64,000 nt of DNA from IMG/VR virus record IMGVR_UViG_3300032280_000753, positions 77,403 to 141,402 of that record; one strand, given 5' to 3'. Under the pieces are notes generated by a model. It was not told the DNA's origin, did no database searches, and saw only the letters and a list, made by a program, of their open reading frames with translations. The translations under genes were made by a program, and so were the position numbers. The stretch comes from a virus (lineage: Duplodnaviria; Caudoviricetes). This document shows positions 22,018 through 64,000 of the stretch, one piece after another. Position 1 is the stretch's first letter; each line of letters starts with the position of its first letter.

Positions 22018-24372
22018 TCAATAATCCATCTTAATTTTGAAGAGAAACTTATCACCGGAGCGTTTAAGAACCGGTTGAGCTATAGAAGTTCTGCCAATAA
22101 CGTTTAGATTATCATCGTGTAATAATACATTGGATATAAAGACGTATTTCTTATCATTTTCATTTGCAAAATCATCTATATTCCCATTTTGGAATTGAGC
22201 ATAGCTGGAACTAATTTCCTGCATGGGTCTTGCATACCCATTTACCGATAAAACGTGAATATTCTGAATGCCTTGGAATTCACATTGGAATTGGTTAAGA
22301 CCAAAGAAGTAGAGTTGTGGAACCTTAAGCAGAATAATTCCTTCGTTATAAAATATGTTGCCTATAGAAGCCCATGTTGCATGAGCGGTATCTGCATCTG
22401 CCCGGTATAGATTACCATAACCATCATCTTTAATGGTCATTGATATACTACCGCTTATAGAACCGCTTATGTTTGCATCTGTCAGAACAAACGTTCCTGG
22501 CTTAATACACAAACCATAATACATATTACTGATATCAAAGAATACAACCTGATTACTTGTGTTGTCACGTGTTCTATCGAAGATTGCATAATCTGAAGCG
22601 GGTGTAACTCCACTCTTCCAGAAGTTATCCGGATTATTTGCTCCTTGTAAAGCTACTGATATTGAATTGTCTTGATCATCAGATTGTAAAACCTGACCTG
22701 GGAATGAACCAGTTATCATATCTCTTAAAGAGATTGCTCCTGGCACATAATTTCCTAAATCATCAACAAATTTACTTCCGCTTAAATCGCTTAATAAACC
22801 ATAGTTTGGAAAGAACTTTCCATTATCGTTTGGAAGTATTGAATATAGTCTCTTTACATTTGAACCGGTTGAATACAATAAAGTATTTGCTTCAGTTGCT
22901 GTTGATAACGTTGTTGTGATAGTAGAAGCTGTTAGATTCATTAATCTTGGGTAACGCCCAGTAACAAAATCTCTTACGTAATTTTCGAGATTTATATAGT
23001 GCCCACCACAACCAAAAGCCATTTTGATATCAAATGGGTCTATAGTTGTTCCATCTTTTGCAATCAAAGGAGTTGTTAATACGCCGCCATCATCATTTAC
23101 TACTTGTCTATATGGACTTTCTTGTGTAAAGAAAGGCGGAAGATAAAACTTAAGATCACTTGTTATTGATTTTACGCCAAAACTATCAAGAGCTTTAATT
23201 TGATCGGTATTGAGATATGAATTATATAATTTTAATTCATGAATTTCTGCCTTAAGAGGATATTTGAAAGCATATGATATAGGCGCATCTTGTGCTGTGC
23301 TATTTTTCAACTCTTCTATTCCATATTTCAATGATGGGTTTGTAGAAAAAAACCATGATGTTTCATTGGATGGACCAGCGTTAGTTCCTTGAAAATAATT
23401 GCCAACGCACAAGATATCTTGATTGAGAGATGCTGAACCAACTGTTAAGCTATTTGTTATAGCAAAGTTACCTTTATTAATTGAATCAACAATAAATGAA
23501 CCGGAACCAAAGTTATAATTTGGACCTCCCCAACGTATTGTTACGTGATGCCATTTATTAACTTCTAATGCATTATCATTTGATAAGAACGTATATGCAG
23601 ATGATGTTGAGGCTAAGTCTGGAGCTATATCTGCGGCTCCTGAGAGCTGTAGCAATAATTTAAAACCACTAATCTTTCCATTGATATCTCGTGCCGATCC
23701 CGAACATAAGCTTATAGCAAATGCACTGGACATATGCATTAAAGTCCCAGGCTTGTATATAACTTCATTTGTATATACAGGCTTTGGCTTTATCCAAAAA
23801 TCAAAAGAGAATGCATTGGAATAGCTATAATCTCTATAATTGCTATTCAAAGAGTTAAGTGGGTTTGGGTATAATAAGACACTTCCAGTAGGGGTATTGC
23901 TGGAAGAGAAAAAATTTAAACTGTGATAGTTTGTATAGTTGTAATGAGCCGTTGGATACGAAGTTCTATAATATGGCATCAACGTATTGATGGTAACAAG
24001 CTTACGTAGTGTATTAGAGTTAAATCGGAACGGCGGCTCAAATCTAAGGATTTCTAATCGTTGATATTGCTTTGGAGATATTGGAGTTTCTTGAACCCCT
24101 GTCATATAAGATGTAATCTCCGAAACAATATTCGTAGAACCAGTTGAAGCTGTAATAGCATTCAAACGTAATTGATTTAAATCATAATCATTGAAATATG
24201 ATTTATTATAATATGTTAAGGGATATGGTTCTTTTTGAAATGTAGAACGTCTTGCAAAAAGATAAAGAGATCCAGTTACACCACCTGTTGAAGAACTGAC
24301 ATAAGTTCTTCTTGGATTGGTTTCAATTGTGAACGTTTCGAAATCATCTGGTGTAACTCGTTGTATTGACAT
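22018..24372 (-). CDS. Virion/baseplate protein with a LamG-like domain and a C-terminal tail-collar-like domain
   Basis: FSFDFWIKP...WHHVTIRW...IHELKLYN (LamG); C-terminal LLHDDNLNVIGRTSIAQPVLK...KIKMDY. Confidence 0.65.
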   Translation of the reverse strand: MSIQRVTPDDFETFTIETNPRRTYVSSSTGGVTGSLYLFARRSTFQKEPYPLTYYNKSYFNDYDLNQLRLNAITASTGSTNIVSEITSYMTGVQETPISPKQYQRLEILRFEPPFRFNSNTLRKLVTINTLMPYYRTSYPTAHYNYTNYHSLNFFSSSNTPTGSVLLYPNPLNSLNSNYRDYSYSNAFSFDFWIKPKPVYTNEVIYKPGTLMHMSSAFAISLCSGSARDINGKISGFKLLLQLSGAADIAPDLASTSSAYTFLSNDNALEVNKWHHVTIRWGGPNYNFGSGSFIVDSINKGNFAITNSLTVGSASLNQDILCVGNYFQGTNAGPSNETSWFFSTNPSLKYGIEELKNSTAQDAPISYAFKYPLKAEIHELKLYNSYLNTDQIKALDSFGVKSITSDLKFYLPPFFTQESPYRQVVNDDGGVLTTPLIAKDGTTIDPFDIKMAFGCGGHYINLENYVRDFVTGRYPRLMNLTASTITTTLSTATEANTLLYSTGSNVKRLYSILPNDNGKFFPNYGLLSDLSGSKFVDDLGNYVPGAISLRDMITGSFPGQVLQSDDQDNSISVALQGANNPDNFWKSGVTPASDYAIFDRTRDNTSNQVVFFDISNMYYGLCIKPGTFVLTDANISGSISGSISMTIKDDGYGNLYRADADTAHATWASIGNIFYNEGIILLKVPQLYFFGLNQFQCEFQGIQNIHVLSVNGYARPMQEISSSYAQFQNGNIDDFANENDKKYVFISNVLLHDDNLNVIGRTSIAQPVLKRSGDKFLFKIKMDY

Positions 24373-24394
24373 AGCATACGTTCAATCTGAAATA

Positions 24395-25585
24395 TCAGAA
24401 ATCAAGTCTTACTTTGAATGTGATATCTCTTTCAGAATCTTTGAAAACTGGACGTGATAGTTTCGATACTCCAAGAAGATTGTTATTGTCATCATACAAT
24501 CCTATTGAAGATACAAACGTAAATCCTTCTTGTTCTAACTCTTGTCCTTCATCAATAACTACAATACGATTGTTGTCATCTGTATAGGTTGGATTTGAAG
24601 AGTAATTGAATGAATCTGGGTTTGCACGACAGAAAAATATTGTGCTGTTAATATTTGTAACGTTCTGAAATGTCACAGCGGTTTCATTAGATGATGTGAA
24701 TCTTGTTGAACACAAATGATCCAAGAAATCATCTATAGAAGCTGACGCACCAAACATACAAAGTGATGCGGACATATTTCCATTAATCCCGCTTGTATAT
24801 TCAACAGAGCTAATAGCTCCAGATATAAAAGTCTTTTGATCAAAACTTCTTGACATATCAAGAACCATTATTCCACGATCAAGGAATAGAAGTCCGTATG
24901 GATTTGTTGTAACGGCAGAATCAACTAATACAGCAGCTTCACCGCCAACAGTATAGTATTTGTTGGTGCTGGAGTTAATATCAGTAAAGATAGACGCACT
25001 AACACCGGACTTAACAATATTACCTGCTACGTTTGCTGGAGTTGGAACTGCAACACCATTTCCAGAAGCAGATACAAAGAATCTAATGGCCGTTGTCTCT
25101 CTTTTTACTTTATCTCTTGCAAACAAACGTTTAAAGCAAATGAATACAGCTTCTTTAATTTCAATTGTATTGTTTGATGCTGGGGCTGTTGCTGTAAATG
25201 TTGCAGTTTCATCACCAAGCAACTCACGTGCAAATAAACGATATATATCTATTTTTTCTCTCATCATAAGAGAGTTAGCTGGAAATATGTATTTGCCGTT
25301 TGCATCTATTGTAGGGGCCCAAGCAGATACTATTGATGAACCGGTTGAGTAACCATAAGTGATGTCAAAAACTGGATTGGCAGTTTGTAAAGTAAAGTCT
25401 TGATCAAATACTGTTTGAAACAAAGAAGACGTTACTCCCGGTCCAAGACCTCCAGTTACGAACACTTGATATTCTCTTCTGGTTGCAGAAGAAGAAACAT
25501 CAGAACCAATGATATCAACCAATTGGTTTAAATAAGAAGTTGTTGACTTAATATCTTGATTGTCAAACGCTTGAAAAGTAGCCAT
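24395..25585 (-). CDS. Baseplate/tail structural protein
   Basis: C-terminal IGLYDDNNNLLGVSKLSRPVFK...VRLDF, paralogous to the neighbouring gene. Confidence 0.65.
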   Translation of the reverse strand: MATFQAFDNQDIKSTTSYLNQLVDIIGSDVSSSATRREYQVFVTGGLGPGVTSSLFQTVFDQDFTLQTANPVFDITYGYSTGSSIVSAWAPTIDANGKYIFPANSLMMREKIDIYRLFARELLGDETATFTATAPASNNTIEIKEAVFICFKRLFARDKVKRETTAIRFFVSASGNGVAVPTPANVAGNIVKSGVSASIFTDINSSTNKYYTVGGEAAVLVDSAVTTNPYGLLFLDRGIMVLDMSRSFDQKTFISGAISSVEYTSGINGNMSASLCMFGASASIDDFLDHLCSTRFTSSNETAVTFQNVTNINSTIFFCRANPDSFNYSSNPTYTDDNNRIVVIDEGQELEQEGFTFVSSIGLYDDNNNLLGVSKLSRPVFKDSERDITFKVRLDF

Positions 25586-25600
25586 TATACCTTGTCCTTA

Positions 25601-35112: not shown

Positions 35113-36078
35113 CTATAGCTCCCAAACCAAAGTAAACATATTCACGAAAGTTGGGGTATTGTTGCTGTCTATAAATACTTTACCAACGAAAAATACGTGA
35201 TGGGCATTTCCGTTTTGGTCTGGAGGGAATATGCCATAGTCAATAACATCAAGCTTCTTCATCCCATCTGAATATACCTCAAAGAATTGACATAACAAGT
35301 TATTTTGACGTGAGGTTTCCGTAAAATCAATATCGTAGCTATAACCAGTCTGTTGAGATGCGCTCAGCTCCGTAGCTAAATCTTGATAAGAAACATATGG
35401 AGCTTGATTTAAGTTTTTATATGATCCAATCACTAAAGAATTTGTTTTGCCTATTCTTGGCTTGTTAATTGGAGGCATGTATTGGAAGTTTGGTATATGG
35501 GAAAGTCTCTTGTCAAAGAATATACTTTCTACTTTGTCAATATCAATTTCCTGTATGCCAGCAGATGATATTGGATTGGTATCATTAATCTTATATGTTA
35601 ATTGTGTTTTATCAATAATGAATTCGTTAAAGTTTATGTCTAATGGATCTGGGCTGGCTAATATCGAAAGCTTCTTAAAGTTTTCTAAAGATGAACTTAG
35701 CAGAGTTGTTGCTAATGAGGCAAACTGTGATCCGCTTATAAACGGCGCTTCAAATCTTGTTGAGCCGGTAAGAACAGGAAATACTTTTCCAGCTCTTACT
35801 CTATATCCATTATCTCCATCGACAAAGTTGGCTAATAGATTGCCACTATCATCAGTTTCAAATACAATGCTGTCCTGTGGCAGATTACCGGCTTCAAATG
35901 TTAAACGTGAGGTGAAGTCAAGTCCACCAGATACAAGCGTATCTAAGGCATATATGGCGCCCGCATCGCTAAAGGATACGTATTCAACATTCATCTTTCC
36001 AGTAGCAGCTTGTCTTCTGCCTTCATTGGTGATGACCGTATCTAATACTCGAGTTTTAGGATCTAATAGTCCAGCCAT
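35113..36078 (-). CDS. Baseplate/tail structural protein, paralogue of 25601-26314
   Basis: N-terminal VLDTVITNEGRRQ...SFSD...Y. Confidence 0.6.
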   Translation of the reverse strand: MAGLLDPKTRVLDTVITNEGRRQAATGKMNVEYVSFSDAGAIYALDTLVSGGLDFTSRLTFEAGNLPQDSIVFETDDSGNLLANFVDGDNGYRVRAGKVFPVLTGSTRFEAPFISGSQFASLATTLLSSSLENFKKLSILASPDPLDINFNEFIIDKTQLTYKINDTNPISSAGIQEIDIDKVESIFFDKRLSHIPNFQYMPPINKPRIGKTNSLVIGSYKNLNQAPYVSYQDLATELSASQQTGYSYDIDFTETSRQNNLLCQFFEVYSDGMKKLDVIDYGIFPPDQNGNAHHVFFVGKVFIDSNNTPTFVNMFTLVWEL

Positions 36079-47965: not shown

Positions 47966-49803
47966 ACGGCTGTGCCGACAAGATCATAATCGGAATATTT
48001 TAGTTCAAACATTGAACCTGGAGGTCCAAACACAATGCCACGACTGGTATTGGCTCTAATATCAAACTGTTGATCGGAATACAGTCTTCCATCCAAAACA
48101 TTATAAACATTGCCGACTTCTAAGTTGGTTACAGAAGCAACTCCTTCTGTGTTGAATATAATATTTTGTATGTCATTTATTACAATTGGTTGATCGATTT
48201 CAAAGTTTTTAATGTTAAAGTAGTTTTTTAGTTTATTTAAGGTATTGCGAAGAACCAATTCTCTATTTTGTGTTGGATCTATAACAACGGTATATTTGAC
48301 CGTGACGTTAATTATTCTGGCATCTAAGATGTCTATAGCGTCACTTATAAGACGATATTCATTTAGATAACTGGCTAAGTTTTTCTTAAGAGTATCTGGA
48401 GCCACAATCAACTGATTATCTTGATTTCTACAAATAATAAAAAGCTGAGAAGACATAGGATTATTTGGATTTGGTTCTATAGCAGCTCTGAATACACGAC
48501 CAAAATTTGATGGAAGCGTATAAACACGAGCGAGCAAATCTTGTTTAGAGACAATACGATTTTGCATTCCTTGGAATGCAGGTATCTTACTCTTGAGTTC
48601 ATTGGTAGTTGGAGGGTCTTCCCCACCAGAAGCAGCTTCAAGATTTATAACGTCAATTGAGTTTCTTACGTAAGCTGCAACAGTTGGATTTGGATTTTGC
48701 GGAAAAAATATATTAAGAGTAGATAACGAAGTAATTGTTTCCGCATCAACATTGTGCTCTAAGCCACCGCCAAATCGATACGTGATGTTTAATGTTGTAT
48801 TTTCTGATATTACTCCAAAGGTTGTTGTCTGCAACAAGTTGCCAGGATTTAAATTAAATCTGGCAAATGTTTTCTTACCGTAAAGAGGTAGAGAGTATTC
48901 ACTTGGATCTGGGATTATATCATCATTAATGGTGCTTGCAGAACCGCCTCCAAATATCAATGTCGTTGTTCTTGTTTGAAGCGCAGTGTTTTTTGTAAAA
49001 CGATATGGAGCCGGAATTGGAACGATGTTTTCCGGAACAAGCTTGTTATCATAACTTAGATTTGTAACTCTTTTATATATTGTATCTTGAGTTAAAGATT
49101 CAACTTCATAGTATTCATTACCCAACACGTCTGAAACGCTTATAACTTCAGTTACATTTGGGTTTGTTAATGCAATATTTCTATAGGGAATGAAAGTGCC
49201 AACCGAAAATGATTCAGTAATTCTTTTACCAGATATACATATTCCATTAAGACTAAGAATATAATTTTGTGGAATGTTATTTGCGTTAGTAGTGCCGACC
49301 GCTACGGATGCGGCTAATGAACCATCAACACGACGAGAAGAGAAATCCAGATTTTCTGTTAATTCAAACTCGATACCGCTTGTTGATCTTATAATCGTGC
49401 CTTCTTTTATTATTGGCAACGATGTGATGTCTGGATTTCCAGTATTTGTTCCATCAGTAGGAACTCTTATATAAAAAGTAACACTAACAACGGCAGGAGC
49501 AGCACCTACGATTGGAACTCCCGCCTTCCTTAAATGTCTTTCTATATTATTTGGTTCAACAGAAGACTCTGGAAACGATTCGTGAAATTGATGATCCAAA
49601 TAATAACTTTGAACGTCACCAACATAAGCAGCCATATCTAAAAGCAAGCCGCCTAAACTCGCTTCGGAAAAATCTCTGATATTATTAGGAAAGTAACTTC
49701 TGGCGTAATCTAATAAATCATTACGTAACGCATCGAAATCTTTATTAAGATACCGGCGCTGTCTTACTTGTTTTAATGCATTTTTTTTATTATCTTCAGC
49801 CAT
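47962..49803 (-). CDS. Baseplate wedge subunit (T4 gp6 / baseplate J-like)
   Basis: KDFDALRNDL...YFP...DFSEAS...AYVGDV and ASGGED...QNRIVSKQD. Confidence 0.85.
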   Translation of the reverse strand: MAEDNKKNALKQVRQRRYLNKDFDALRNDLLDYARSYFPNNIRDFSEASLGGLLLDMAAYVGDVQSYYLDHQFHESFPESSVEPNNIERHLRKAGVPIVGAAPAVVSVTFYIRVPTDGTNTGNPDITSLPIIKEGTIIRSTSGIEFELTENLDFSSRRVDGSLAASVAVGTTNANNIPQNYILSLNGICISGKRITESFSVGTFIPYRNIALTNPNVTEVISVSDVLGNEYYEVESLTQDTIYKRVTNLSYDNKLVPENIVPIPAPYRFTKNTALQTRTTTLIFGGGSASTINDDIIPDPSEYSLPLYGKKTFARFNLNPGNLLQTTTFGVISENTTLNITYRFGGGLEHNVDAETITSLSTLNIFFPQNPNPTVAAYVRNSIDVINLEAASGGEDPPTTNELKSKIPAFQGMQNRIVSKQDLLARVYTLPSNFGRVFRAAIEPNPNNPMSSQLFIICRNQDNQLIVAPDTLKKNLASYLNEYRLISDAIDILDARIINVTVKYTVVIDPTQNRELVLRNTLNKLKNYFNIKNFEIDQPIVINDIQNIIFNTEGVASVTNLEVGNVYNVLDGRLYSDQQFDIRANTSRGIVFGPPGSMFELKYSDYDLVGTAV

Positions 49804-49810: not shown

Positions 49811-50278
49811 TCACGTTATAAATAAACTTATTTCTAATAATTGCTCCGGAAAAGTGGAGACTTTATACGCAAGTATGATGTATATAACACCAGTATATAC
49901 GTTTTGCGTTCTTTCAACTTTGGATTCATACCCTAATAAGTTAACAAATGGCATATATTTTCCAACAGTTGTCTTAATTCTACGCATCGCCTCCTGATCA
50001 AAGTTGTCTTTATTGCTAAAATCAGTTAAAAGAGGACGAAGATTAGCTCCAAAATCATACATTGCTAATCTTTCTCCATGATTAGTTAGGATGATATTTC
50101 TTAAATTATCGCTCATTTGTTCAAGAAGACTATAGTTCATCTTGAATATCGATACAGAATTCCCTTCATCTAATTCTAATGGAGTTTTGATACCAAATGG
50201 CGTGGGAGCAACTGACGCAACTATACTACGTTCAATTGAATTCTGTATCCCAACATCTTTAAAAGATAATCTCGCCAT
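49811..50278 (-). CDS. Baseplate wedge protein (gp25-like)
   Basis: NLRNIILTNHGER...DFGANL. Confidence 0.85.
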   Translation of the reverse strand: MARLSFKDVGIQNSIERSIVASVAPTPFGIKTPLELDEGNSVSIFKMNYSLLEQMSDNLRNIILTNHGERLAMYDFGANLRPLLTDFSNKDNFDQEAMRRIKTTVGKYMPFVNLLGYESKVERTQNVYTGVIYIILAYKVSTFPEQLLEISLFIT

Positions 50279-50298: not shown

Positions 50299-50568
50299 TC
50301 ATGGAATCCCAGGAGTATATGGAGCTATTCCTGGTGCTGTTACTACAACAACCCCGGTCCCTGCTCCTGTAAATGCTCCAGGCGTTACCAAAAACGTTTT
50401 CAATATTGTTAGCTCATTAATAACGTAAGACGCAACTGCTTCAGATATGGCGGTTGATATCATGTCTATCTGTGCATTACCGGCTCCCGTATTACCTTCA
50501 GCTTTACCAAGTTCAGATTGCAATATTGCTTTAATTGTATTTTTCATCGCCGCTTTTGACATAATCAT
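50299..50568 (-). CDS. Small structural protein next to the spike gene
   Basis: Coupled to the upstream gene; Gly/Thr-rich C-terminus. Confidence 0.5.
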   Translation of the reverse strand: MIMSKAAMKNTIKAILQSELGKAEGNTGAGNAQIDMISTAISEAVASYVINELTILKTFLVTPGAFTGAGTGVVVVTAPGIAPYTPGIP

Positions 50569-52280
50569 TCTCCATATATTTTTGTAGATTTGACCGTATT
50601 GTTATACGTATTCTTAATTTTATCATCAGCTTCTGTTATGGTTTGATCCAAATTAGAAAACTGCACCTGATCCCTTAATGCATTGTTAGCCAAAGCATAA
50701 AGTGATGGTATGTTTGAATATGGAACCGCAATTGCAGTTTGAAAAGCAGTTTCTAAAGTTTCTTCAAGAGTTTTTATGTGATCTCTTAAAGAATTGATTT
50801 GATCTTGTAACGTTTCTATCGTTTGTTTATATACAGAGTATCTAACATATGGCTGTGATAAATCTCCTGCTCTTCCAAGATATATTTCATTTGCCTCAAC
50901 TTGAAGCTTACCCTCTTTATTAAGATATATGTAAGCCAAGTTTCCGTCCGGAACTGTTGGTAATGTATCTGGATCTGCTGATATACTATTAGAGTTAAGC
51001 TTTCCTTCACGAATTATAAGAACAGTCCCAGGAATGTTTTCGCTGGCAGCAGTTTGTGGTTCACGGCGAGCAATCATACGTATATGATCTGCCTTATTAA
51101 CAACATAGCTTCTACCTAATGTTCCATTCTCAACCGGCTGCTCATTTGCAAGACATTCTGGAGGATATGATATTCCTCGAGTTCCGTTGAAAACTAACCC
51201 ATAATTTTCATCAACACGACTTTGCTGAACAACATATACTCTCGCAGCATCAAATATTGGATTAGGATTTCCTTCATTGGTATTAGCTATAGATTCACGT
51301 GAGTTTCTAAAAGGATTTTTATCCGTTTCTTTATAACCACGTATATTATCTATTATTAATGGTGCATTTGAAGAAGCACCAGAAGGATTGCTAACCGCAG
51401 GTGCTTTGGGATCAGCTCCAGTTTCTGGCAGATATCTGCCTCGTCCAACTACAATATCAATTGCGGCTGCTTGTCTTGGAGCTCCGCCCAACTTTATAAT
51501 GTCAACAGGATTGTCGTTAATAGCACCATCAATTGGTCCATTACGATCTTCGCCTAACATTATCAATGCATTGTTGGCTCCTTGTAACACCAACTCTTGA
51601 GGGCGTTTCTTCCATCTCGGAACCGGTTCTGGCGTAACAAATGCAGTTGCACGGGCTTCATTGAATATGGCATCATAAGGATTTTCTGCCATGTTTCTTT
51701 CGTTGACTGGTAATGTCGCAGTATCTATACTATTGCCGCCATTTTGAAACGTCTCAGGACCGTTGCCTGCATTTCTGTTAGTTATCTCCCTTGTGGTATA
51801 TGTGCCTTCATTAATGGTAGGATCAAATCTTCTGTCATGATGAGTGTAGTTTGGATCCTCATAAGTTCCATATCCGGACACTCTGGACATCCAATAACCA
51901 ACCTTTGTTCCCGATCCTTGCATATCTTCATATATGACATATACCTGTTCCCCAGGCATAACAGGCAACATGAAATGAGAAGAATAAAATGGGAATAATA
52001 TTGTATTAGAATTTGAACCGTTGCCGTCATTAGATGACACCAATCTCGCAATAATACAATTAACAGACATAACATCAAGCAACTCCGCATTGTTAATGGT
52101 TGCGGTTAATGCTTCTTTGTATTCTTCAGTTATAAGAGATAAATCGGTTATAACATCTACAACAACAGCTCTTTGTAATGTTGGAGTTTGACCGGAAGTT
52201 AATGTTTGCGCTGTTAACGCAGCATTAATACCTGCTGCACCCATCAAACTACGGGCTATATTTGTTCCGGCTCTCGGCAT
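50565..52280 (-). CDS. Baseplate hub/spike protein (gp5/VgrG-like OB-fold)
   Basis: LPVMPGEQVYV...YWMSR OB-fold, ELVLQGANNALIMLG, and position upstream of the gp25-like gene. Confidence 0.6.
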   Translation of the reverse strand: MPRAGTNIARSLMGAAGINAALTAQTLTSGQTPTLQRAVVVDVITDLSLITEEYKEALTATINNAELLDVMSVNCIIARLVSSNDGNGSNSNTILFPFYSSHFMLPVMPGEQVYVIYEDMQGSGTKVGYWMSRVSGYGTYEDPNYTHHDRRFDPTINEGTYTTREITNRNAGNGPETFQNGGNSIDTATLPVNERNMAENPYDAIFNEARATAFVTPEPVPRWKKRPQELVLQGANNALIMLGEDRNGPIDGAINDNPVDIIKLGGAPRQAAAIDIVVGRGRYLPETGADPKAPAVSNPSGASSNAPLIIDNIRGYKETDKNPFRNSRESIANTNEGNPNPIFDAARVYVVQQSRVDENYGLVFNGTRGISYPPECLANEQPVENGTLGRSYVVNKADHIRMIARREPQTAASENIPGTVLIIREGKLNSNSISADPDTLPTVPDGNLAYIYLNKEGKLQVEANEIYLGRAGDLSQPYVRYSVYKQTIETLQDQINSLRDHIKTLEETLETAFQTAIAVPYSNIPSLYALANNALRDQVQFSNLDQTITEADDKIKNTYNNTVKSTKIYGE

Positions 52281-54174: not shown

Positions 54175-54180
54175 GAAGCT

Positions 54181-55020
54181 CTATATGCTAAACTCGTCGG
54201 TGTTCTTTACATCACGATAATGTCTCTTAAGAGAACTCAATACAATCGATAACTGTTTAGAACTTAAAGTTGTGAGTTCCCTTACATAGAGTAATATCGC
54301 CCTCTTACTTAAAAGATCAACGTCTTCAAGATTGCTAATAAGTACTTTAATGGCATTAACTACCATTTTTTCATTATCTGTCTTAGTCTTGTCCTCTATA
54401 GCCGCAACAAGCTTAATCAGATAATCATGAGTATTAACCATGGTATAAAGTTCTTCAAATCCAGGTTGAAACTGTTGCGTCTCAATCTGTTCAACGTCTT
54501 CCTTAGATAAATTATCACGATCATCCATTGAGATATAACTTTGAACACGTTTGATGTTCTGTTTACTCTTAATGGTTAACCAGTTTTTAGCTACAACGTT
54601 GAAATAAGAAAATGCTTTACTACCCTTTTCAGCGTTAAACTTCTCTACTGCTGAATATAGGAACTGTAAACACTCATGCTTAAGGTCTTGCTTACTCTCA
54701 TATATTACTGAAAAGCCATAGACGTTTATCAGATTTTCTACAAGGCTATCAAAGGCAGGAAGTATCTCCTTCACGTAAACCTTTTTCTTTTTTTCCGTAT
54801 CGGCTTCCTGCTGATAGATTATAATTTGTTCTTGTGTTTTATCTGTAAAATAATTGATAAGGGTAGGTTGATCGCCTTTACGTTTAATCTTCCTTCTACC
54901 TTTTTTTTCGGGACTACCAATTGGAGGTATAGAATCGGTACGTGGAGCTACCGTTAATAAGTCACCAATATCATTAATTTCTGCTGATATATCAACGGTT
55001 GAAGTCTTGCGTATTCTCAT
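54181..55020 (-). CDS. Phage sigma factor (late, gp55-like)
   Basis: DLKHECLQFL...KFNAEKGSKAFSYFNVVAKN resembles sigma region 2 (gp55 NPFAYF). Confidence 0.7.
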   Translation of the reverse strand: MRIRKTSTVDISAEINDIGDLLTVAPRTDSIPPIGSPEKKGRRKIKRKGDQPTLINYFTDKTQEQIIIYQQEADTEKKKKVYVKEILPAFDSLVENLINVYGFSVIYESKQDLKHECLQFLYSAVEKFNAEKGSKAFSYFNVVAKNWLTIKSKQNIKRVQSYISMDDRDNLSKEDVEQIETQQFQPGFEELYTMVNTHDYLIKLVAAIEDKTKTDNEKMVVNAIKVLISNLEDVDLLSKRAILLYVRELTTLSSKQLSIVLSSLKRHYRDVKNTDEFSI

Positions 55021-55399
55021 CTAACATTTCTCCTCGGAGTATACGCTCTCTCATTATTCTCTCTTGCAATTCACGAATATTAGGTTCTTCTTCAACAACC
55101 ATATTATATTTTTGTTTGCTACGATCAACAAATTTAAGAGCCACACGATTAACAGCCATTTTATTTTTCTTAATCTCTGCCATGGCTTCATGAACAACCA
55201 TTTGAACTTCTTTGCTATCAAAGAATAATCTCATTTCTAAGATTTTCTCTAATGCCTGTTCGGTATCCTCTAATGCCTCTACAGCATCAGAAAAATCATC
55301 TTCAATAATCATAATAATCCGTGCAAAACGAATTAGATAAAATATTGACGTAATTAATAGAAATAATATTACCAGAGTTGTTAATCCAAGTATAATCAT
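54992..55399 (-). CDS. Membrane-anchored coiled-coil protein
   Basis: N-terminal hydrophobic helix. Confidence 0.6.
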   Translation of the reverse strand: MIILGLTTLVILFLLITSIFYLIRFARIIMIIEDDFSDAVEALEDTEQALEKILEMRLFFDSKEVQMVVHEAMAEIKKNKMAVNRVALKFVDRSKQKYNMVVEEEPNIRELQERIMRERILRGEMLDENTQDFNR

Positions 55400-56592
55400 C
55401 CCAATACTTCCTTAAGTGCTTCTGTATATTGAGTAGCAACCGCCTCATAAGAGTATTCCTTCTTAAGAGTTACGGCTAAATCTTTAGCCCATTGTTGAGG
55501 CATTTGTGGGCTTTCTACAAACTTCTTTACACGGTGCTTGAAATCATCTTCTTTAACATTTGCCCACTTGGCTTTTTCCATCCAAATCTGATTATCTACT
55601 CGGGTTTGATGAATTTGCTCTAAACGATAGTCAAGCTTTACATACTTCCCTTTACCAAGGAACTCTGTATGAGCACTCCAGCCCGTAGCAATAACTGGAA
55701 GACCAGAAGCCGCCGCCTCAAGAATAGGAAGACCAAATCCTTCACCACGAGTAGGAGCTACAAGAGCTTTAATCTTTGGATGACGATATAGAGATGCTAC
55801 TTCTTCGTCTGTCATATCACCATGAAGAAGATAGAACTTTGGAAACTCTGCGCCCTTCTTGATCTCCATCGTAAGTTGCGCCATCATATTCGTTGTTCGC
55901 ATACGATCAACTACCGTATGTCTACCGGTATTTGTCTTAAGAACTATCCCAACGTCCGGATTATCTTTGAACTGTTCTGCCAACCACTTAACCGTATAAA
56001 ATATATTCTTACGATCATTTTCTGGATTATTGCCAGTTATCTGTCCAAATACAAGAAAGTTAAAATCTGTCTTAAGTTCTAAATCAATTTCTGATAGCTC
56101 CGGTGTAGCTACGGCATCAATAAATGCTTCTGGAATAACAACAACCTTAGTCTTTACTTCGCCGCTGTTTGCAAATACTTCCTTAACAAATTCCGAAGGA
56201 ACAATTACAAGATCCATGCGATTAATGGCTGATATCCATGCAGGATTACATACGTCGCCTTCAACACCTGCCGTTATTCCAACGTTATAATCTGCAAGGA
56301 AAGGGTTCCATTCATTTGGCAACTGTAGCTGTAAAGAAACATCATATTTATCTCTTTTTCCAGCAGCTTGCAATAAACGACCAATCAATCCATCTTGAGC
56401 ATATACATCAACGTGCCAAGGAGTTGCACCCCATGGAAGAGGTTCCGTAACAACATCAATATTTCCAGTTCTATCTGCTAAATCAAATAGCCAACGAGCT
56501 ATCTGACGAGCATGAACTCCATAACCACTTTCGGTTAATACTGGACCACGAAGAATTACTGTTTTCTTTGTCATTACTATATCCCTTATCAC
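55396..56592 (-). CDS. Glycosyltransferase, GT-B fold (GT4-like)
   Basis: SGYGVHAR, RKN and RGEGFGLPILEAAASGLPVI (EX7E). Confidence 0.9.
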   Translation of the reverse strand: MIRDIVMTKKTVILRGPVLTESGYGVHARQIARWLFDLADRTGNIDVVTEPLPWGATPWHVDVYAQDGLIGRLLQAAGKRDKYDVSLQLQLPNEWNPFLADYNVGITAGVEGDVCNPAWISAINRMDLVIVPSEFVKEVFANSGEVKTKVVVIPEAFIDAVATPELSEIDLELKTDFNFLVFGQITGNNPENDRKNIFYTVKWLAEQFKDNPDVGIVLKTNTGRHTVVDRMRTTNMMAQLTMEIKKGAEFPKFYLLHGDMTDEEVASLYRHPKIKALVAPTRGEGFGLPILEAAASGLPVIATGWSAHTEFLGKGKYVKLDYRLEQIHQTRVDNQIWMEKAKWANVKEDDFKHRVKKFVESPQMPQQWAKDLAVTLKKEYSYEAVATQYTEALKEVLG

Positions 56593-57920
56593 TTAATATT
56601 GATCAACTTGTTAGCAGGAGCTGGATTAATGCCGGTAAGCTTCCAACGCTTGAGAGCACCGGTTTCTTTCCTTGCCTTATAATCTTCTACGCATTTTAAC
56701 ATCGTATCATGCCAGCTTTGAACCATGTTTTCATACTTGAATTCATGCTCAAGATATTCGGTAGTCTTCTCTCTGAACTCTGCCTTCTTCTCTGGTGTCC
56801 AACTATATACTTCCATAAAAGCGTCTGCCACTTGACGTTCCGTGCAATAGTCTTCGAAGATATAAGGAACCATTTGTGAACCGACTAATGAACGCTTTGC
56901 TGGCTCAATAGCAACGCCATACTGATAACCATTACGATAATCTTCTACCTGACGTGTTTCGCCGCCGGTCTTAAGAGCAATGATTGGCTTACCAACCTGC
57001 AATGAAATAAGAGTAGAAAGACCAAACCCTTCATTCTTAGCTATGTTAACACAAACGTCTGCGAGGTTGTGCATAACATTCATTTGCTCAAATTGAAGAC
57101 GATCATTTGAGAACCAAACATTTTCATTTAATCCAAGCATATCAGATGTTGCAAGAAGATTTGGACCTTCCATATCATTTGGATCTGTATGCATGATTAG
57201 AACTGCATTACGGTGTCCTTCTTTCTTCTCAAGATCATCAAGGAAGGTCTTCCATCCAAGAAGAACATCATTCGGCATTTTACGTGTAGCATTACGATTA
57301 ACCCAAAGAGCCTTAAACCAGTCAGCTTTTGCACCAAAGTTCTGTTGCTTAAGATGATTAATTTGTTCCGCCGGTAGAGCATGATATGCCTCCTTCGGGA
57401 ACGTATGAGGAATATAGTTGGTCTTCTCTGGGAAATGAGGTTTGACCATTTCAAATGTCTTATAAGAAAGGCAATTGATTAGATCGGTACTCTCATACCA
57501 TGGGAAGTTAAATGCTGGATATGGATCATTATCCCAAACGTGCCAATAGACGATTGGGCATACTTGATGGATTTCATCTTCCATTTCCCAAAGCCAAGTA
57601 AACTGGCGTGGATCTGTAAACAAGAATATGGCATCAGGTTGTTCCGTAATAAGAAGCTGACGAATGAGTTCCTTGCTTCCAAAGCCGTCTACAGGCTTTA
57701 CAATGAAGTCAGGGTTGACAGCTATCGTATCGTACTTTGCGTGCTTCATAGCGCCGCCTAAGCAGCGGAATGACCATTGACCGGTCTTGATAAGACCATC
57801 AATAAGAAAGCGTGCTTGGACACCTACACCAGATGGTGCAAGTGGATGATCCGAAAGTGTGATTACCTTATACTTCTTCTTAAAATTAAACGGCGTGAGA
57901 AATGTGTTCTCTTCTGACAT
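56589..57920 (-). CDS. Glycosyltransferase, GT-B fold (GT4-like)
   Basis: SGVGVQ, NRNATRK and NEGFGLSTLISLQVGKPII. Confidence 0.88.
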   Translation of the reverse strand: MSEENTFLTPFNFKKKYKVITLSDHPLAPSGVGVQARFLIDGLIKTGQWSFRCLGGAMKHAKYDTIAVNPDFIVKPVDGFGSKELIRQLLITEQPDAIFLFTDPRQFTWLWEMEDEIHQVCPIVYWHVWDNDPYPAFNFPWYESTDLINCLSYKTFEMVKPHFPEKTNYIPHTFPKEAYHALPAEQINHLKQQNFGAKADWFKALWVNRNATRKMPNDVLLGWKTFLDDLEKKEGHRNAVLIMHTDPNDMEGPNLLATSDMLGLNENVWFSNDRLQFEQMNVMHNLADVCVNIAKNEGFGLSTLISLQVGKPIIALKTGGETRQVEDYRNGYQYGVAIEPAKRSLVGSQMVPYIFEDYCTERQVADAFMEVYSWTPEKKAEFREKTTEYLEHEFKYENMVQSWHDTMLKCVEDYKARKETGALKRWKLTGINPAPANKLINIK

Positions 57921-57985: not shown

Positions 57986-58969
57986 TCAAAGATTTAATGC
58001 TCTATCATAATCTGCGTCATACATCATATGTGCTAAATCTTTAAATGTGGTCTTTGGTTTCCAGCCCAATATTCTTTGAGCTTTGGCACTATCACCAAGC
58101 AATATTGGAACCTCATGGGGACGATATAAACGTGTATCAATCTTAAGATGCTCTTCAATATTTAAACCGGCGTGTTTAAATACAACTTCAAGAAATTCTT
58201 TAACAGTATGCGTCTCACCGGTTGATATAACAAAATCATCACCTTTTGGTTGCTGAAGCATTAACCACATTGCCTCAACATAGTCTCCAGCAAATCCCCA
58301 ATCCCTCTTCGCATCGAGATTTCCAAGATATAATGTTTCTTGTTTGCCAAGCTTTATATTAGCTGCGGCAAGAGTAATCTTGCGAGTTACAAACGTTTCA
58401 CCTCTTACTGGACTTTCATGGTTAAACAATATGCCAGATGATATATGAAGACCATAGCTCTCACGATAGTTACGGCAAAGATTATGTGCATATAGTTTCG
58501 CAGCAGCATAAGGAGAAGCTGGTGTCATACGTGTCTCTTCATTTTGAGGAATATTAATATTATCCCCATACATCTCCGAGGATGACGCTTGATAGAAACG
58601 TGCTTGCGGACAGATTAGCCTATAAGCCTCTAAAAGCTTCAAAGTTCCGCCACCTACTACGTCTAAGGTTTCTTCAGGAACCTCAAAGGAAACCCTTACA
58701 TGGCTCTGTGCAGCAAGGTTATATATCTCGTCAGGCTTGTGCTTCATAAGCAAAGCATAAAGAGAACTTGAATCAGTCATATTCCCATATTCAAGTTTGA
58801 AGTTTGGATGATTAAAAACTTCTATATCATCAAGGCGGTTTGTATTGATAAGAGAAGTTCTACGCTTCATTCCAATAACACGATAACCTTTATCAAGAAG
58901 AAGTTTAGCTAAATAAGAACCATCCTGACCGGTTACGCCAGTTATAAACGCAGTCTTTTGTATTGACAT
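57986..58969 (-). CDS. gmd: GDP-mannose 4,6-dehydratase
   Basis: ITGVTGQDGSYLA, NLAAQSHVRVSF, YQASSSE, SPYAAAK and FNHESPVRGETFVTRKI. Confidence 0.97.
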   Translation of the reverse strand: MSIQKTAFITGVTGQDGSYLAKLLLDKGYRVIGMKRRTSLINTNRLDDIEVFNHPNFKLEYGNMTDSSSLYALLMKHKPDEIYNLAAQSHVRVSFEVPEETLDVVGGGTLKLLEAYRLICPQARFYQASSSEMYGDNINIPQNEETRMTPASPYAAAKLYAHNLCRNYRESYGLHISSGILFNHESPVRGETFVTRKITLAAANIKLGKQETLYLGNLDAKRDWGFAGDYVEAMWLMLQQPKGDDFVISTGETHTVKEFLEVVFKHAGLNIEEHLKIDTRLYRPHEVPILLGDSAKAQRILGWKPKTTFKDLAHMMYDADYDRALNL

Positions 58970-59943
58970 TATACTCCTCTTACATTTGGATATGTTGCTT
59001 TAAACCAATCACAGGTTTTCTTTAAAGCAATGTCAAATGGAGTATAGTCTTCTGCACGCCAACTTGTTTTTTCTAATAGCCTCTTATTGGAAGATGGCTT
59101 TCTAAATTGACCAGATGGTTTGTCGGTATTAAAAACTAACTTCCCATCGTATTCAAGAAATTCAACAAGCTTCATCGCTACAGAAGAAATAGAATGTTCT
59201 TCCGTGTTGCCAATGTTAAGCGGTTGTTCTTCGTTATATTCTTCTGAAACTTTAAGGAGTATACGGGCAACATCTCCGGAGTAAGTAAATTCTCTCAATG
59301 GTCTACCATCTCCCCATATTTCTACGGCAGGCTTATTATTAAGTTTAGCTTCCCAGATCTTTCTCATAAGAGCTGGAATGACGTGGCCATCTTCTAAATG
59401 AAAGTTGTCATATTCTCCAAATAGATTATTTGGAATGACAGTAACATAGTTCACCCCGTATTGCTTGCGATAAGCTCTTGTTTGCACGTCTAGCATCCTT
59501 TTAGCGTAAGCATAACCGAAGTTACTATCATGTGGAGGACCGAGGTGTAACTGGTCTTCTGTGAGCGGATAGGAGACGTATGGAGCGTCTGGATATACAC
59601 AAGTAGACAATACAGAAACTAGTTTAGGAATACTATGTTCGGAACAAGCTTGTAGAAAATTTACATTAATATTAATGTTTGTAGAATAAAATGAACCCAA
59701 TTCATTTGAGTTAGCTTTAACGCCGCCAACTTTAGCTGCCAAATGAATTGCGTAATTAAATTTACTATATATGCCTTGACCATCAAAGCATTCGCAATCA
59801 GCTAGATATTTTTTGACGCTTCCAAAATCAAGTAGGTTCAATTCCTTTGAAGTTGGACTATAACACGATATGTCTTGGCTTTTAGCAGCGTTATTTAAAG
59901 CTTTTCCTAAAAGCCCTGATCCGCCTGTAATCAATATGTTCAT
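58969..59943 (-). CDS. fcl: GDP-L-fucose synthase
   Basis: TGGSGLLG, HLAAKVGG, STCVYP, YAYAK, HVIPAL and WGDGRPLREF. Confidence 0.93.
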   Translation of the reverse strand: MNILITGGSGLLGKALNNAAKSQDISCYSPTSKELNLLDFGSVKKYLADCECFDGQGIYSKFNYAIHLAAKVGGVKANSNELGSFYSTNININVNFLQACSEHSIPKLVSVLSTCVYPDAPYVSYPLTEDQLHLGPPHDSNFGYAYAKRMLDVQTRAYRKQYGVNYVTVIPNNLFGEYDNFHLEDGHVIPALMRKIWEAKLNNKPAVEIWGDGRPLREFTYSGDVARILLKVSEEYNEEQPLNIGNTEEHSISSVAMKLVEFLEYDGKLVFNTDKPSGQFRKPSSNKRLLEKTSWRAEDYTPFDIALKKTCDWFKATYPNVRGV

Positions 59944-60480: not shown

Positions 60481-60487
60481 TCTCCTG

Positions 60488-61393
60488 TCATATTCCTATT
60501 TTTTTAAGACGTTCCTCAGTTAACTTGGTCAATAGATCAAATTTAGAACCGTCTTCCACTATCAAATTCTTTTTACCGCTATTGTGCCAATGCCAAGCAA
60601 ACGTTTCTGTAAACAAAAACTTTTTATTATCTGCCCGATTTTTAAACCAGCCTGCTTCAATATAATCACCTAAACCTGGAGTGTGTTTATTTATACACCA
60701 TTCTGTATTAAAAAATGTTGATGGAAAAATTGTGTATTGATATTGCCTATAGAGTTGAGCAAACATATCTTTGCCCCAGCACGTGGAATTAGGTATGATT
60801 GTCATTTTACGGGCTTCTTCTAGAAGCTTTATAGAGAATTCTGATTCCTTCTTTAGTGAAAGGACCGTGGCGCAAGCTCCTTGGTTTTTAAAATCGGTTT
60901 CGGAGCCCCACATATACATATACTCTTGGTCTAACAGAGGTTTGAAATCTCTTAAGAGTATGATATCCATATCAATCCAAACGCCACCGTATTTATGCAA
61001 AACCAACAATCTTAGTAAATCGCTTTGTAAGTAATGTTTTTCATCAGCAGCCTTAAACATACGCAACTCTTTTTCTATAGGAGTGCCAATAGCTTCAGAT
61101 TTAGCGTCCCATACTCTAAAATCTACAAGGTCTTTAAATCTTTGAATTCTTGGCTCATTGCTTATGTCATAATCAGACCAAACAATCACTTTTGTTTTTT
61201 CTAAATTTTGAGTTGCAAAATATGACATTAGAGATACTATCTCTTTATCAGTTCGGAATTCAGAATATATGTGAAAAGGTACCTTGTCTTCCGGATAAGA
61301 ATAGCTATTATCATTGATAGACTGTAAAAAATTGAGACAGTCCAAATAATTCAAATATAAATTTGGATTATTTTCAAATGATATATCGATCAT
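60488..61393 (-). CDS. DxD glycosyltransferase (GT32-like)
   Basis: SDLLRLLVLHKYGGVWIDMD. Confidence 0.85.
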   Translation of the reverse strand: MIDISFENNPNLYLNYLDCLNFLQSINDNSYSYPEDKVPFHIYSEFRTDKEIVSLMSYFATQNLEKTKVIVWSDYDISNEPRIQRFKDLVDFRVWDAKSEAIGTPIEKELRMFKAADEKHYLQSDLLRLLVLHKYGGVWIDMDIILLRDFKPLLDQEYMYMWGSETDFKNQGACATVLSLKKESEFSIKLLEEARKMTIIPNSTCWGKDMFAQLYRQYQYTIFPSTFFNTEWCINKHTPGLGDYIEAGWFKNRADNKKFLFTETFAWHWHNSGKKNLIVEDGSKFDLLTKLTEERLKKIGI

Positions 61394-62004: not shown

Positions 62005-62005
62005 G

Positions 62006-62395: not shown

Positions 62396-63428
62396 ATTCT
62401 TTATCCTTTACTGAGTTCAAAAATTCTTCTACTTTTTGTATTTCATCTTCAGTTAGATAAGGATGGCAAGGTATAGACAAAATTTTATCAGAAACTCGAA
62501 CACCAACTTTATTATTGTTTATGCCTTGAAGGGCTGTATAGTCGGTCACGTGAGCTTTATAATGAACCATGTGAGGTATACCTCTGGCATTCATCTCTTT
62601 GATTACATCGTCACGATTTTCAAACATAACTGTGAAGAGATGATATACCGAATTAGTATTGAGTCTATATCCTTTTACTATCTTTTTGTAGCGATTGGCA
62701 ATTTCATTTCTTTTTTCATTAAGAGATTCAAACTTTGATAGTTTAGCTAAAACAATAGAAGCCTGCATCTCGTCCATTCTACTGTTGATTCCAACAAACT
62801 CTACTACGCCGTTGTTTTGTCCGTAGAAGCGATACTTCTTAAAGTATTCAGCTTCATCCTTACTGTTAAGGCATATCATCCCACCATCACCCATCGAACC
62901 TAGTGGTTTGGTTGGATAGAAGCTAAATACAGAATAGTCTCCATCTTTCCCGCATCCAGAACCGGTAGATTGGGCACAGTCCTCTATAAGAATATGGTTA
63001 TTGTCTTTGCAATATTTTTTAATCTTATCGATTTGACAATTGTTTCCAAAAAGATGAACTGGGATTACAATACCATTTTTTACATCTGGCAATTTATTCG
63101 GATCAATTGTCATTGATGCATCTACATCAACATAATGAATGTTGTCTGTGATATTTCTACAAGCAACAGACGTAGGATATGCGCCAAAATTTGGCAGTAT
63201 GATTGGCATATTATTGCTATGAAGCTTCTTTACAAGCATCGTAATTGCATCGGTGCAATTTTTAACACCTACACCATATGCAACGCCAATCTTTTTAGAA
63301 AATTCGTTTTCTAGTCTTTCTAGCTTTGGTCCTAGCAAATAGCATCCGGCATTATAAACAGTCGTTAATTCTTCATTAATTTCTTTTTTAAATGAATTGT
63401 TCTCTGCGTATAAATCGACAAATTTCAT
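62385..63428 (-). CDS. DegT/DnrJ/EryC1/StrS sugar aminotransferase (FdtB-like)
   Basis: VHLFG, EDCAQS, SFYPTKPLG (PLP lysine) and NSRMDEMQA. Confidence 0.92.
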   Translation of the reverse strand: MKFVDLYAENNSFKKEINEELTTVYNAGCYLLGPKLERLENEFSKKIGVAYGVGVKNCTDAITMLVKKLHSNNMPIILPNFGAYPTSVACRNITDNIHYVDVDASMTIDPNKLPDVKNGIVIPVHLFGNNCQIDKIKKYCKDNNHILIEDCAQSTGSGCGKDGDYSVFSFYPTKPLGSMGDGGMICLNSKDEAEYFKKYRFYGQNNGVVEFVGINSRMDEMQASIVLAKLSKFESLNEKRNEIANRYKKIVKGYRLNTNSVYHLFTVMFENRDDVIKEMNARGIPHMVHYKAHVTDYTALQGINNNKVGVRVSDKILSIPCHPYLTEDEIQKVEEFLNSVKDKEYAI

Positions 63429-64000
63429 GTTGTTTCTTTCAAATAAAGTTCTAAATGCTTAATCAATCCATATGGTGAAAAGTATTCGTCATACGTCAAC
63501 TTGTTCTCATAGCATATATCTAGAACATTTAAATTTTTAATGTATTGCTCAATTCTATTATGTAACTCACCAATCTCATGCGACTCACAAATAATAGCTT
63601 GTCTTTGCCAATTTATAACTTTTTCCAGGGGCAATTTTAAATCAGAGTTGATTATTATTGGTATCCTACCAAGAGCTAAAGTTTCATATAAACGATATGA
63701 GAAATTACCATTACCTCTTATGCATATACCGAAAAGTCCACTGCGAACGTTTGCTACGAATTCTTTTCTTGCTAGTGTTTTGTCTGATATCTCCGGAGCC
63801 CAAAACCCATTACGATATAAAAAGTTTTTGCATAAATTATAGTTCTTTTCTAGTTCAGCAAAGATATGATATCGATGTGGATCTCTAACGTTGCCACAGA
63901 AACTTATTACAGCATTTTTTAATGCCTTTTCTGTAGGCTTTACGTATTCAAATTCCTCACAGAAAGCTGGCATTATAATTTCATTTTGCCTTATCTTGCT
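63425..64000 (-). CDS. Exostosin-family (GT47-like) glycosyltransferase, 5'-truncated by the window edge
   Basis: CIRGNGNFSYRLYETLALGRIPII; the frame stays open from 63973 to the edge. Confidence 0.75.
   Translation of the reverse strand, partial: SKIRQNEIIMPAFCEEFEYVKPTEKALKNAVISFCGNVRDPHRYHIFAELEKNYNLCKNFLYRNGFWAPEISDKTLARKEFVANVRSGLFGICIRGNGNFSYRLYETLALGRIPIIINSDLKLPLEKVINWQRQAIICESHEIGELHNRIEQYIKNLNVLDICYENKLTYDEYFSPYGLIKHLELYLKETT

Follow-up and report, generated by a model that had tools for sequence, protein, structure and literature searches.

Why should several tail and baseplate proteins of one phage be crowded with a single tripeptide, [ST]-G-S (serine or threonine, glycine, serine; [ST]GS below), and does the group of glycosyltransferase (GT) genes beside them have anything to do with it? 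These questions are raised by a 64,000-nucleotide stretch of viral DNA (positions 77,403 to 141,402 of IMG/VR record IMGVR_UViG_3300032280_000753; hereafter the window), which comes from an uncultured T4-like myophage and carries all genes of the region on the minus strand. The original prediction, made from the sequence with no database search, held that [ST]GS is the acceptor motif for a phage-encoded, methylated glycan containing fucose and an amino sugar, which coats exposed parts of the virion. We found that the motif is maintained by selection on the protein, is excluded from the baseplate wedge protein J, and accompanies a conserved pair of GT4 glycosyltransferase genes at the head of the baseplate operon. 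Whether it is in fact a sequon-like acceptor for cytoplasmic O-glycosylation primed by this pair is, in our judgment, an evenly balanced question. The five motif-rich proteins on which the argument turns, with lengths in amino acids (aa), are as follows.

22018..24372, minus strand: 784-aa LamG/pentraxin-fold protein; 10 [ST]GS, the densest in the window
36082..39069, minus strand: 995-aa motif-rich protein; 7 [ST]GS
39071..41959, minus strand: 962-aa LamG-domain protein; 11 [ST]GS
42930..46361, minus strand: 1143-aa baseplate-peripheral protein with two LamG-type jelly rolls; 8 [ST]GS
46361..47965, minus strand: 534-aa protein directly after baseplate J; 4 [ST]GS

Expected counts were obtained from 2000 composition-preserving shuffles of each protein, and came to 0.99 for the 784-aa protein, 1.88 for the 995-aa protein, 1.70 for the 962-aa protein, 1.31 for the 1143-aa protein and 0.70 for the 534-aa protein. 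The enrichment therefore survives shuffling, a check that the original prediction had proposed, with a 4- to 10-fold excess (p < 0.001 in three proteins and p < 0.01 in all five). The hand counts given in that prediction were exact for all five proteins, and its contrast with the 1452-, 818-, 643-, 613- and 571-aa proteins, which have 0–1 motifs each, also held. In an unbiased scan of tripeptides, SGS (23 versus 3.8 expected) and TGS (17 versus 2.85) were the top recurrent over-represented tripeptides, and SGT, TGT, GSS, SSG, AGS and NGS were all near expectation. The residue following [ST]G is serine in 40 of 88 cases, 4.2 times more than composition would give, and the residue preceding GS is serine or threonine in 40 of 68 cases (3.1 times). 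The flanks are weakly constrained and are hydrophobic on both sides. Because the 40 motif sites are encoded by 32 different 9-mers, using both TCN and AGY serine codons, selection must act on the protein, and a signal at the DNA level was rejected.

The contrast between motif-rich and motif-poor proteins is repeated by the orthologues in nine IMG/VR contigs, with weak enrichment in the most distant of them (L009). To quantify how the motif is kept, we compiled 118 homologues each of the 1143-aa protein (at least 50% identical) and the 784-aa protein (at least 45% identical). The motif exceeded expectation by 6.5–7.5 times in both families, with 10.45 [ST]GS per protein versus 1.61 expected in the former and 8.48 versus 1.14 in the latter. 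It was spread over 84 alignment columns in the 1143-aa family, four of which were at least 80% occupied, and over 74 columns in the 784-aa family, three of which reached that occupancy; columns less than 50% occupied contributed 4.83 and 3.89 motifs per protein, respectively. The motif is thus kept by turnover and not by descent alone, and the proposal that it is under protein-level selection was confirmed. At the variable sites the replacements were mostly TSS, SAS, SSS, SQS, SKS, SGT and SGA. Family-wide enrichment was also found for [ST]SS (2.5–3.5 times) and [ST]AS (2.3–2.8 times), and was absent for [ST]GN, [ND]GS, AGS, NG[ST], [ST]NG and [ST]DG; the turn formers among these (NG[ST], [ST]NG, [ST]DG and [ST]GN) stood at 0.3–1.1 times expectation in both families. 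Since the glycine-less forms are enriched and [ST]GN, [ND]GS, AGS and NG[ST] are not, the motif is not simply a glycine turn. It consists of a hydroxyl residue, a small residue (glycine more than serine or alanine) and a serine.

An indication that something reads the motif comes from a protein that lacks it. Two baseplate wedge proteins encoded just upstream of the motif-rich set are motif-free.

47962..49803, minus strand: baseplate J (T4 gp6-like) wedge protein; Pfam PF04865, PHROG 219
49811..50278, minus strand: gp25-like baseplate wedge protein

We retrieved 80 related contigs through the 398-aa GT4 gene described below, and these are the basis of the orthologue totals given next and of every count out of 80 loci. 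The orthologues of the 1143-aa protein in these contigs contain 233 [ST]GS versus 45.9 expected, and those of the 534-aa protein 252 versus 41.6, whereas the J orthologues contain two versus 31.3. The gp25-like orthologues have none (6.8 expected), which is not significant at the level of states. Orthologues are not independent samples, and we therefore counted distinct states (alignment column and residue) among 55 different J sequences that are 38–85% identical. After [ST]G, serine occurred in 0 of 118 states versus 10.5 expected, although threonine (10 versus 9.4), alanine (8 versus 9.7), asparagine (14 versus 8.4) and aspartate (9 versus 5.9) were normal in the same position. Before GS, neither serine (0 versus 6.4 states) nor threonine (0 versus 5.7) was found, or jointly 0 versus 12.1, although both were normal before GT, GA and GN, and serine was normal after [ND]G and [ST]A. 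Baseplate J thus specifically excludes the [ST]GS tripeptide. An exclusion of exactly this tripeptide is predicted by a trans-acting reader and not by a folding preference, and it supports the earlier proposal that the motif is limited to peripheral proteins of the virion.

The genes upstream of the baseplate proteins provide a candidate for such a reader.

55396..56592, minus strand: GT4 glycosyltransferase, second gene of the pair (398-like); Pfam, EX7E motif intact; candidate motif-linked transferase
56589..57920, minus strand: GT4 glycosyltransferase, first gene of the pair (443-like); Pfam, 4-base overlap with the next gene
57986..58969, minus strand: GDP-mannose 4,6-dehydratase (Gmd); NCBIfam TIGR01472, 455 bits versus an equivalog cut-off of 415
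58969..59943, minus strand: Fcl-like GDP-sugar epimerase/reductase; 206 bits versus an equivalog cut-off of 500
60488..61393, minus strand: DXD-motif (GT32-like) glycosyltransferase; PF04488, PF05704
61390..62004, minus strand: FkbM-family methyltransferase; PF05050, TIGR01444
62385..63428, minus strand: DegT/PseC-type sugar aminotransferase; PF01041, NCBIfam
63425..64000, minus strand: GT47 (exostosin-like) glycosyltransferase, cut by the window end; PF03016, full 305-aa copy in the related contig G001

The glycan cluster of the original prediction was recovered in its two GT4 genes, Gmd, Fcl-like, DXD, FkbM, DegT and GT47-like members, but the second methyltransferase and the FdtA-like isomerase that it had also listed had no matches in Pfam, PHROGs or NCBIfam. 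Its location about 3 kb upstream was accurate, with the first GT gene 3.1 kb upstream of the 571-aa gene that heads the baseplate genes. The phage-encoded glycosyltransferases comprise the two GT4 enzymes together with DXD, GT47 and GT2 transferases. In G001 (60644–68791) the cluster runs about 8 kb past the window end, where it includes the GT47 gene, two GT2-like genes, a UDP-glucose/GDP-mannose dehydrogenase and five further soluble proteins of about 200–310 aa.

The members of this cluster differ greatly in how well they are conserved. The 443-like gene adjoins the 398-like gene in 75 of the 80 loci, and downstream of the pair stand the genes for a conserved 279-aa protein (78 loci), the 571-aa protein (75), gp25 (71) and J (68). 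In the same loci Gmd was found 28 times, the Fcl-like gene 18 times, DegT six times and FkbM once. The GT4 pair thus belongs to the core of the baseplate operon, and the genes for sugar supply are exchangeable. The claim that the motif is tied to the whole cluster of fucose, amino-sugar and methylation genes was therefore not upheld, and the glycan composition that had been proposed can be strain-specific at best.

The nearest relatives in phage collections are Flavobacterium phage immuto, Microcystis phage Mel-JY01 and the 484-kb uncultured phage LR756508, with baseplate J identities of about 30%. Orthologues of the 398-like protein were found in the contigs G001 and G002, in immuto, in Mel-JY01 and in the complete 181-kb contig G007, and by hidden Markov model in Rhodothermus phage RM378; the 443-like protein was also found in LR756508 and RM378. 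Among 50,697 phage records, a full-length match to the 398-like protein occurred only in immuto and Mel-JY01; some Streptomyces phages gave partial, generic GT4 matches in this search. The EX7E motif was kept in the 398-like proteins of all four lineages compared. The two genes also stand side by side in this order in immuto (E = 1e-57 to 1e-63), Mel-JY01, RM378 and G007. In RM378 only a profile search detects the second of them (E = 9e-11). In Mel-JY01 the first, 443-like gene (83441–84932) is broken into two open reading frames (ORFs) of 190 and 302 aa, perhaps genuinely, perhaps through a frameshift or an error in sequencing. The best PDB sequence match of the 443-like protein was a weak one, the chlorovirus glycosyltransferase B736L (3oy2; E = 3e-4).

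We compared the distribution of the pair with that of the motif. In the clade of the window both GTs are present and virion proteins are enriched in [ST]GS. Immuto has both GTs and 117 [ST]GS genome-wide versus 46.7 expected, concentrated in the baseplate, a 'tail spike', a neck-region protein and the sheath; its tail sheath and fibres are enriched and its major capsid protein is not (the capsid gene of the present phage lies outside the window). Mel-JY01, with a split 443-like and a 398-like gene, has 147 versus 57.6, and RM378, with a 443-like and a divergent 398-like gene, is moderately enriched (51 versus 19); sequence comparison did not tie the enriched proteins to particular parts of its tail. 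G007 and its clade have both GTs and are enriched 5–7 times downstream of J. The pair was thus present in every motif-rich complete genome checked (immuto, Mel-JY01, RM378 and G007). LR756508 has the 443-like but not the 398-like gene, and none of its proteins fell below p = 0.001; its motif density is the lowest in its clade, with 0, 2 and 3 motifs where the orthologues of its relatives mostly have 3–7, 5–17 and 3–7. It also carries Gmd and an Fcl-like gene, yet is not enriched. Larrie has neither GT and is not enriched (15 versus 11.8). T4 and P8625 are not enriched either, and are absent from the tblastn matches to either GT at E ≤ 1e-8, although neither was searched directly for the pair. 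The co-occurrence that the original prediction had expected among related phages is therefore seen for the pair, but it is largely confounded by shared ancestry. A tblastn search with the fibre proteins for more motif-rich cultured phages returned only self matches or matches to SHAEG repeats.

Structural models place the motif in varied surroundings. Jelly rolls of the LamG/pentraxin type are present in the AlphaFold (AF2) models of both the 1143-aa protein (mean predicted local distance difference test score, pLDDT, 76) and the 784-aa protein (pLDDT 88.5). Foldseek matched the two models to laminin G, to pentraxin and to a carbohydrate-binding protein of Bacteroides. PF13385 matches the 1143- and 962-aa proteins, and the 784-aa protein scores 26.6 bits, just under the cut-off of 27.6 bits. 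The LamG label of the original prediction is supported by these results, whereas its 'propeller' and 'DNRLRE' labels had no matches in Pfam, PHROGs or NCBIfam. As it had expected, all motifs in the two models lie in loops or at the boundaries of strands and helices. Three motifs of the 1143-aa model form two-residue hairpins and the remaining five are at loop–strand junctions; in the 784-aa model the ten motifs are in strand-end loops, in one long loop, and in loops just after or before helices, and none of its four two-residue hairpins has a motif. Judging from these models, the motif has no single structural setting.

These results suggest how the system could work. [ST]-G-S, with weaker [ST]-S-S and [ST]-A-S, would be a short linear recognition motif in predicted exposed loops of peripheral baseplate and fibre proteins. 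Its reader would be a cytoplasmic protein O-glycosylation system whose core is the GT4 pair, which may attach the first sugar or sugars to the hydroxyl groups of serines and threonines in tail proteins that have folded or are being assembled. A strain-specific glycan may then be supplied and lengthened by the variable upstream genes, all of them for soluble proteins (Gmd, Fcl-like, aminotransferase, methyltransferase and further GTs), and tightly packing inner proteins such as baseplate J would be kept motif-free. The motif statistics, turnover, J avoidance, pair synteny and co-occurrence are direct observations; we infer a glycan modification, with the GT4 pair as its reader, because the enrichment is order-specific, the sites turn over and lie in heterogeneous loops, J excludes them, a conserved pair sits in the baseplate operon, and no lipid-carrier machinery accompanies it. 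On the last point, a hydropathy scan of the G001 and G002 clusters (about 15 kb in G001) found no multi-pass membrane protein, and therefore no flippase, polymerase or priming phosphotransferase is encoded there; host enzymes could supply these steps. The sole membrane-type protein near the cluster is a 135-aa protein. This protein is strongly hydrophobic at its N-terminus, and its ORF (54992–55399), present in 32 of the 80 loci, overlaps the 398-aa GT gene at the end of the latter. Of the original acceptor-motif reading, the selection on the motif, its position in loops, its peripheral restriction and its co-occurrence with GTs are retained, and the gene set of the whole cluster and a general glycan composition are not. 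That the same arrangement characterizes a large group of giant and mid-sized aquatic myophages (including immuto, Mel-JY01 and possibly RM378), with an [ST]-G-S sequon, a GT4-primed glycan, swappable cassettes, a strain-specific tail coat and purged inner proteins, is a tentative proposal to which we give slightly less than an even chance.

Several observations weigh against this assignment. The GT4 pair resembles only generic GT4 enzymes, and searches of Pfam, NCBIfam and PDB revealed no relation to a known protein O-glycosyltransferase. The other phage proteins (unclassified ORFs of the 80 contigs) contain the motif at chance level, 82 versus 86.5, whereas an enzyme that diffuses freely in the cytoplasm should have led to avoidance in more proteins. 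In the sister clade around LR756508, J has 6 raw motifs versus 29.6 expected, but only 3 versus 5.2 states, and we dropped avoidance in that clade once shared ancestry was allowed for. The co-occurrence is confounded because all motif-rich phages belong to one broad group sharing baseplate J, and LR756508 is a single loss event. The three hairpin motifs of the 1143-aa model make up three of its seven two-residue hairpins, a proportion that, in the model, fits a Gly-Ser type II' turn. Furthermore, GT islands beside the tail-fibre genes of phages have been assigned to modification of the host O-chain (PMC7029224).

The last two points also favor an explanation in which [ST]-G-S is simply the uncharged tight turn or strand-end cap that this lineage prefers in beta-rich extracellular domains and is left unmodified, and the GT island alters the host O-chain or capsule against superinfection. 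It would account for motifs at strand ends, for their confinement to beta-sandwich parts with none in helical cores, and for the regular phi-x-phi-[ST]-G-S strings of fibre-like proteins. However, it does not explain why J should exclude the motif when [ST]GT, [ST]GA, [ST]GN and [ND]GS are normal there, nor the 4-fold preference for serine over threonine, asparagine and aspartate at the third position, nor the enrichment of [ST]SS and [ST]AS. The motifs of the 784-aa model are in long and helix-flanking loops and not in its two-residue hairpins; this heterogeneity, together with the glycine-less forms, also weakens a glycine hairpin turn taken alone. That LamG folds or tail fibres carry the motif in general was rejected, since enrichment was absent from T4 gp5–gp12 and gp34–gp37, from the fibre and ConA-like proteins of P8625, and from Larrie, and the LamG and fibre proteins of these phages are without the motif. 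We regard the structural explanation as fairly unlikely, yet as the most probable of the alternatives.

It is also conceivable that the reader is another trans-acting factor, such as a phosphorylating or acylating enzyme, a tail-assembly chaperone or a docking partner, and that the GT4 pair is a mere neighbor. Enrichment and J avoidance argue for a reader without identifying which, and the pair has no match among known protein glycosyltransferases. Nevertheless, no kinase, acyltransferase or chaperone gene was found to be conserved with the motif, and the pair is the only gene set that tracks it across lineages, making this alternative improbable. A chance or compositional artefact of Ser/Gly-rich low-complexity regions is scarcely credible: the proteins are indeed rich in serine, threonine and glycine, and collagen-like G-X-Y repeats explain the count of one Mel-JY01 protein, but simple Ser/Gly richness is refuted by the shuffles and by permuted tripeptides that are not enriched, and the sites are dispersed and replicated in more than 200 homologues and several lineages.

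The proposed system can be compared with several known ones. In serine-rich repeat adhesins, GtfA/GtfB carries out cytoplasmic O-GlcNAcylation before the proteins reach the surface (PMC6973325). There, as here, two adjacent GT-B genes are involved and the Ser/Thr acceptors are separated by one small residue (S-x-S); the present pair overlaps by 4 bases and is adjacent in 75 of the 80 loci as well as in immuto, Mel-JY01, RM378 and G007. The differences are that Pfam, NCBIfam and PDB searches identify the present enzymes as generic GT4 and not as members of the GtfA/GtfB family, that the candidate acceptors here are single tripeptides within folded, lectin-like domains whereas those of the adhesins are long and disordered serine-rich repeats, and that accessory Sec export is not involved. 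The autotransporter heptosyltransferases Aah and TibC are cytoplasmic enzymes that modify many serines and threonines in short inter-strand loops of AIDA-I and TibA. This resembles our proposal in its cytoplasmic enzyme, its many sites and its Ser/Thr acceptors in loops of a beta-rich surface protein, but no heptosyltransferase-family (GT9) domain was found here and the enzymes are GT4. General O-glycosylation in Bacteroidota uses the sequon D-[ST]-[AILVMT], and is periplasmic and lipid-linked, requiring a flippase and an oligosaccharyltransferase. It shares with the present proposal a three-residue O-glycosylation sequon marking many proteins. The motif is different, however, and the hydropathy scan of the G001 and G002 clusters gave no priming phosphoglycosyltransferase, flippase, or polymerase/oligosaccharyltransferase that would place them in a lipid-linked pathway.

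Among phages, the 'host recognition cluster' GT islands of pelagimyophages and cyanomyophages have been proposed to modify the host O-chain, with no acceptor motif described (PMC7029224). They resemble the present locus in having hypervariable soluble GT and sugar-nucleotide genes adjoining the tail genes of large aquatic myophages; here, however, a conserved GT4 pair can be told apart from the variable genes, and its distribution follows that of a motif in virion proteins. The nearest experimentally known system is capsid glycosylation in mycobacteriophages. In the literature searched, experimentally established virion glycosylation was found only for a few of these phages, in which it blunts antibody recognition; the major capsid proteins of Che8 and Rita were proved to be glycosylated by mass spectrometry (Freeman et al. 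2023, Cell Host Microbe 31:1216, via PMC11256854). In the text consulted (PMC11256854), the proposal is that cytoplasmic GTs encoded by the phage glycosylate its virion proteins, so that a glycan coat results, as we propose here. That text describes the major capsid protein as the acceptor and reports no [ST]GS-like sequon; our candidate targets are baseplate-peripheral and fibre proteins marked by a dispersed tripeptide, in giant myophages of Gram-negative or cyanobacterial hosts. Our literature search found nothing relevant on a phage sequon or on Ma-LMM01-type structures.

The avoidance in J, the conserved GT4 pair and the co-occurrence of pair and motif are new in this analysis. If the proposed reading is correct, no sequon-directed system of protein glycosylation would have been described for phages before this one. 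Its action at the tail tips of abundant myophages of fresh and marine waters would give the widespread, puzzling GT islands beside tail genes a new interpretation. It would add a further layer to host recognition and to the evasion of host defences, a simple sequence test could predict coated virion surfaces, and the compact tag and two-enzyme module could be of use in glyco-engineering. Three carriers of the GT4 pair are in culture: the phages immuto, Mel-JY01 and RM378.

Several other genes of the region deserve mention.

24395..25585, minus strand: 396-aa protein; one TGS and four SAS, relaxed [ST][GA]S 5 versus 1.25 expected
35113..36078, minus strand: 321-aa protein; 2 [ST]GS versus 0.29 expected, with 2–3 in orthologues
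50565..52280, minus strand: 571-aa conserved protein at the head of the baseplate genes (the 'spike' of the original prediction); motif at chance, without a family match
54181..55020, minus strand: 279-aa conserved protein between the GT4 pair and the baseplate genes, in 78 of the 80 loci

In the order of transcription, the glycan-gene block (about 64000–55396) is followed by a small protein with an N-terminal hydrophobic segment, conserved proteins of 279 and 169 aa, an RNA-ligase-like gene, the 571-aa protein, the gp25-like protein, baseplate J, and then the large proteins down to position 22018. T4-type baseplate genes are recognizable in order through PF04965 (a weak match below cut-off), PF04865, PHROG 219 and PHROG 261; PHROGs left most structural proteins of the region without a name. 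The 279-aa protein had no match in Pfam, PHROG, NCBIfam or PDB, and its orthologues are located near the baseplate genes of immuto and Mel-JY01. CheckV completeness values of 20–24% for related IMG/VR contigs of 77–89 kb imply a genome size near 370 kb. With five matches across the window versus 9.7 expected, the T4 late-promoter core TATAAATA is not over-represented and was rejected as a sign of late expression of the GT genes; the late transcription signals of this phage must be different from those of T4.

The RNA-ligase-like gene (52328–53620; 430 aa), which is located after the GT4 pair and before the baseplate genes, occurs in just two of the 80 related loci and seems to have been inserted recently into a gene order that is fixed in other respects; Mel-JY01 and LR756508 have distant homologues. 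Genes for GIY-YIG homing-endonuclease-like and TnsA-like endonucleases (20085–20846 and 21433–21924) are found just downstream of the last motif-rich structural gene. In Mel-JY01, a collagen-like G-X-Y protein with GTS/GSS triplets (635–3052) and a motif-rich fibre protein (3065–4591) are encoded directly upstream of a 1227-aa ORF with a GT4 domain (4747–8430). In G001, an 889-aa fibre-like protein with YadA-like SHAEG repeats (81477–84146, minus strand) contains 24 [ST]GS versus 4.5 expected, many of them in phi-x-phi-[ST]-G-S-phi strings; it is located about 20 kb past the right end of the window, and the motif-rich set therefore extends beyond the window.

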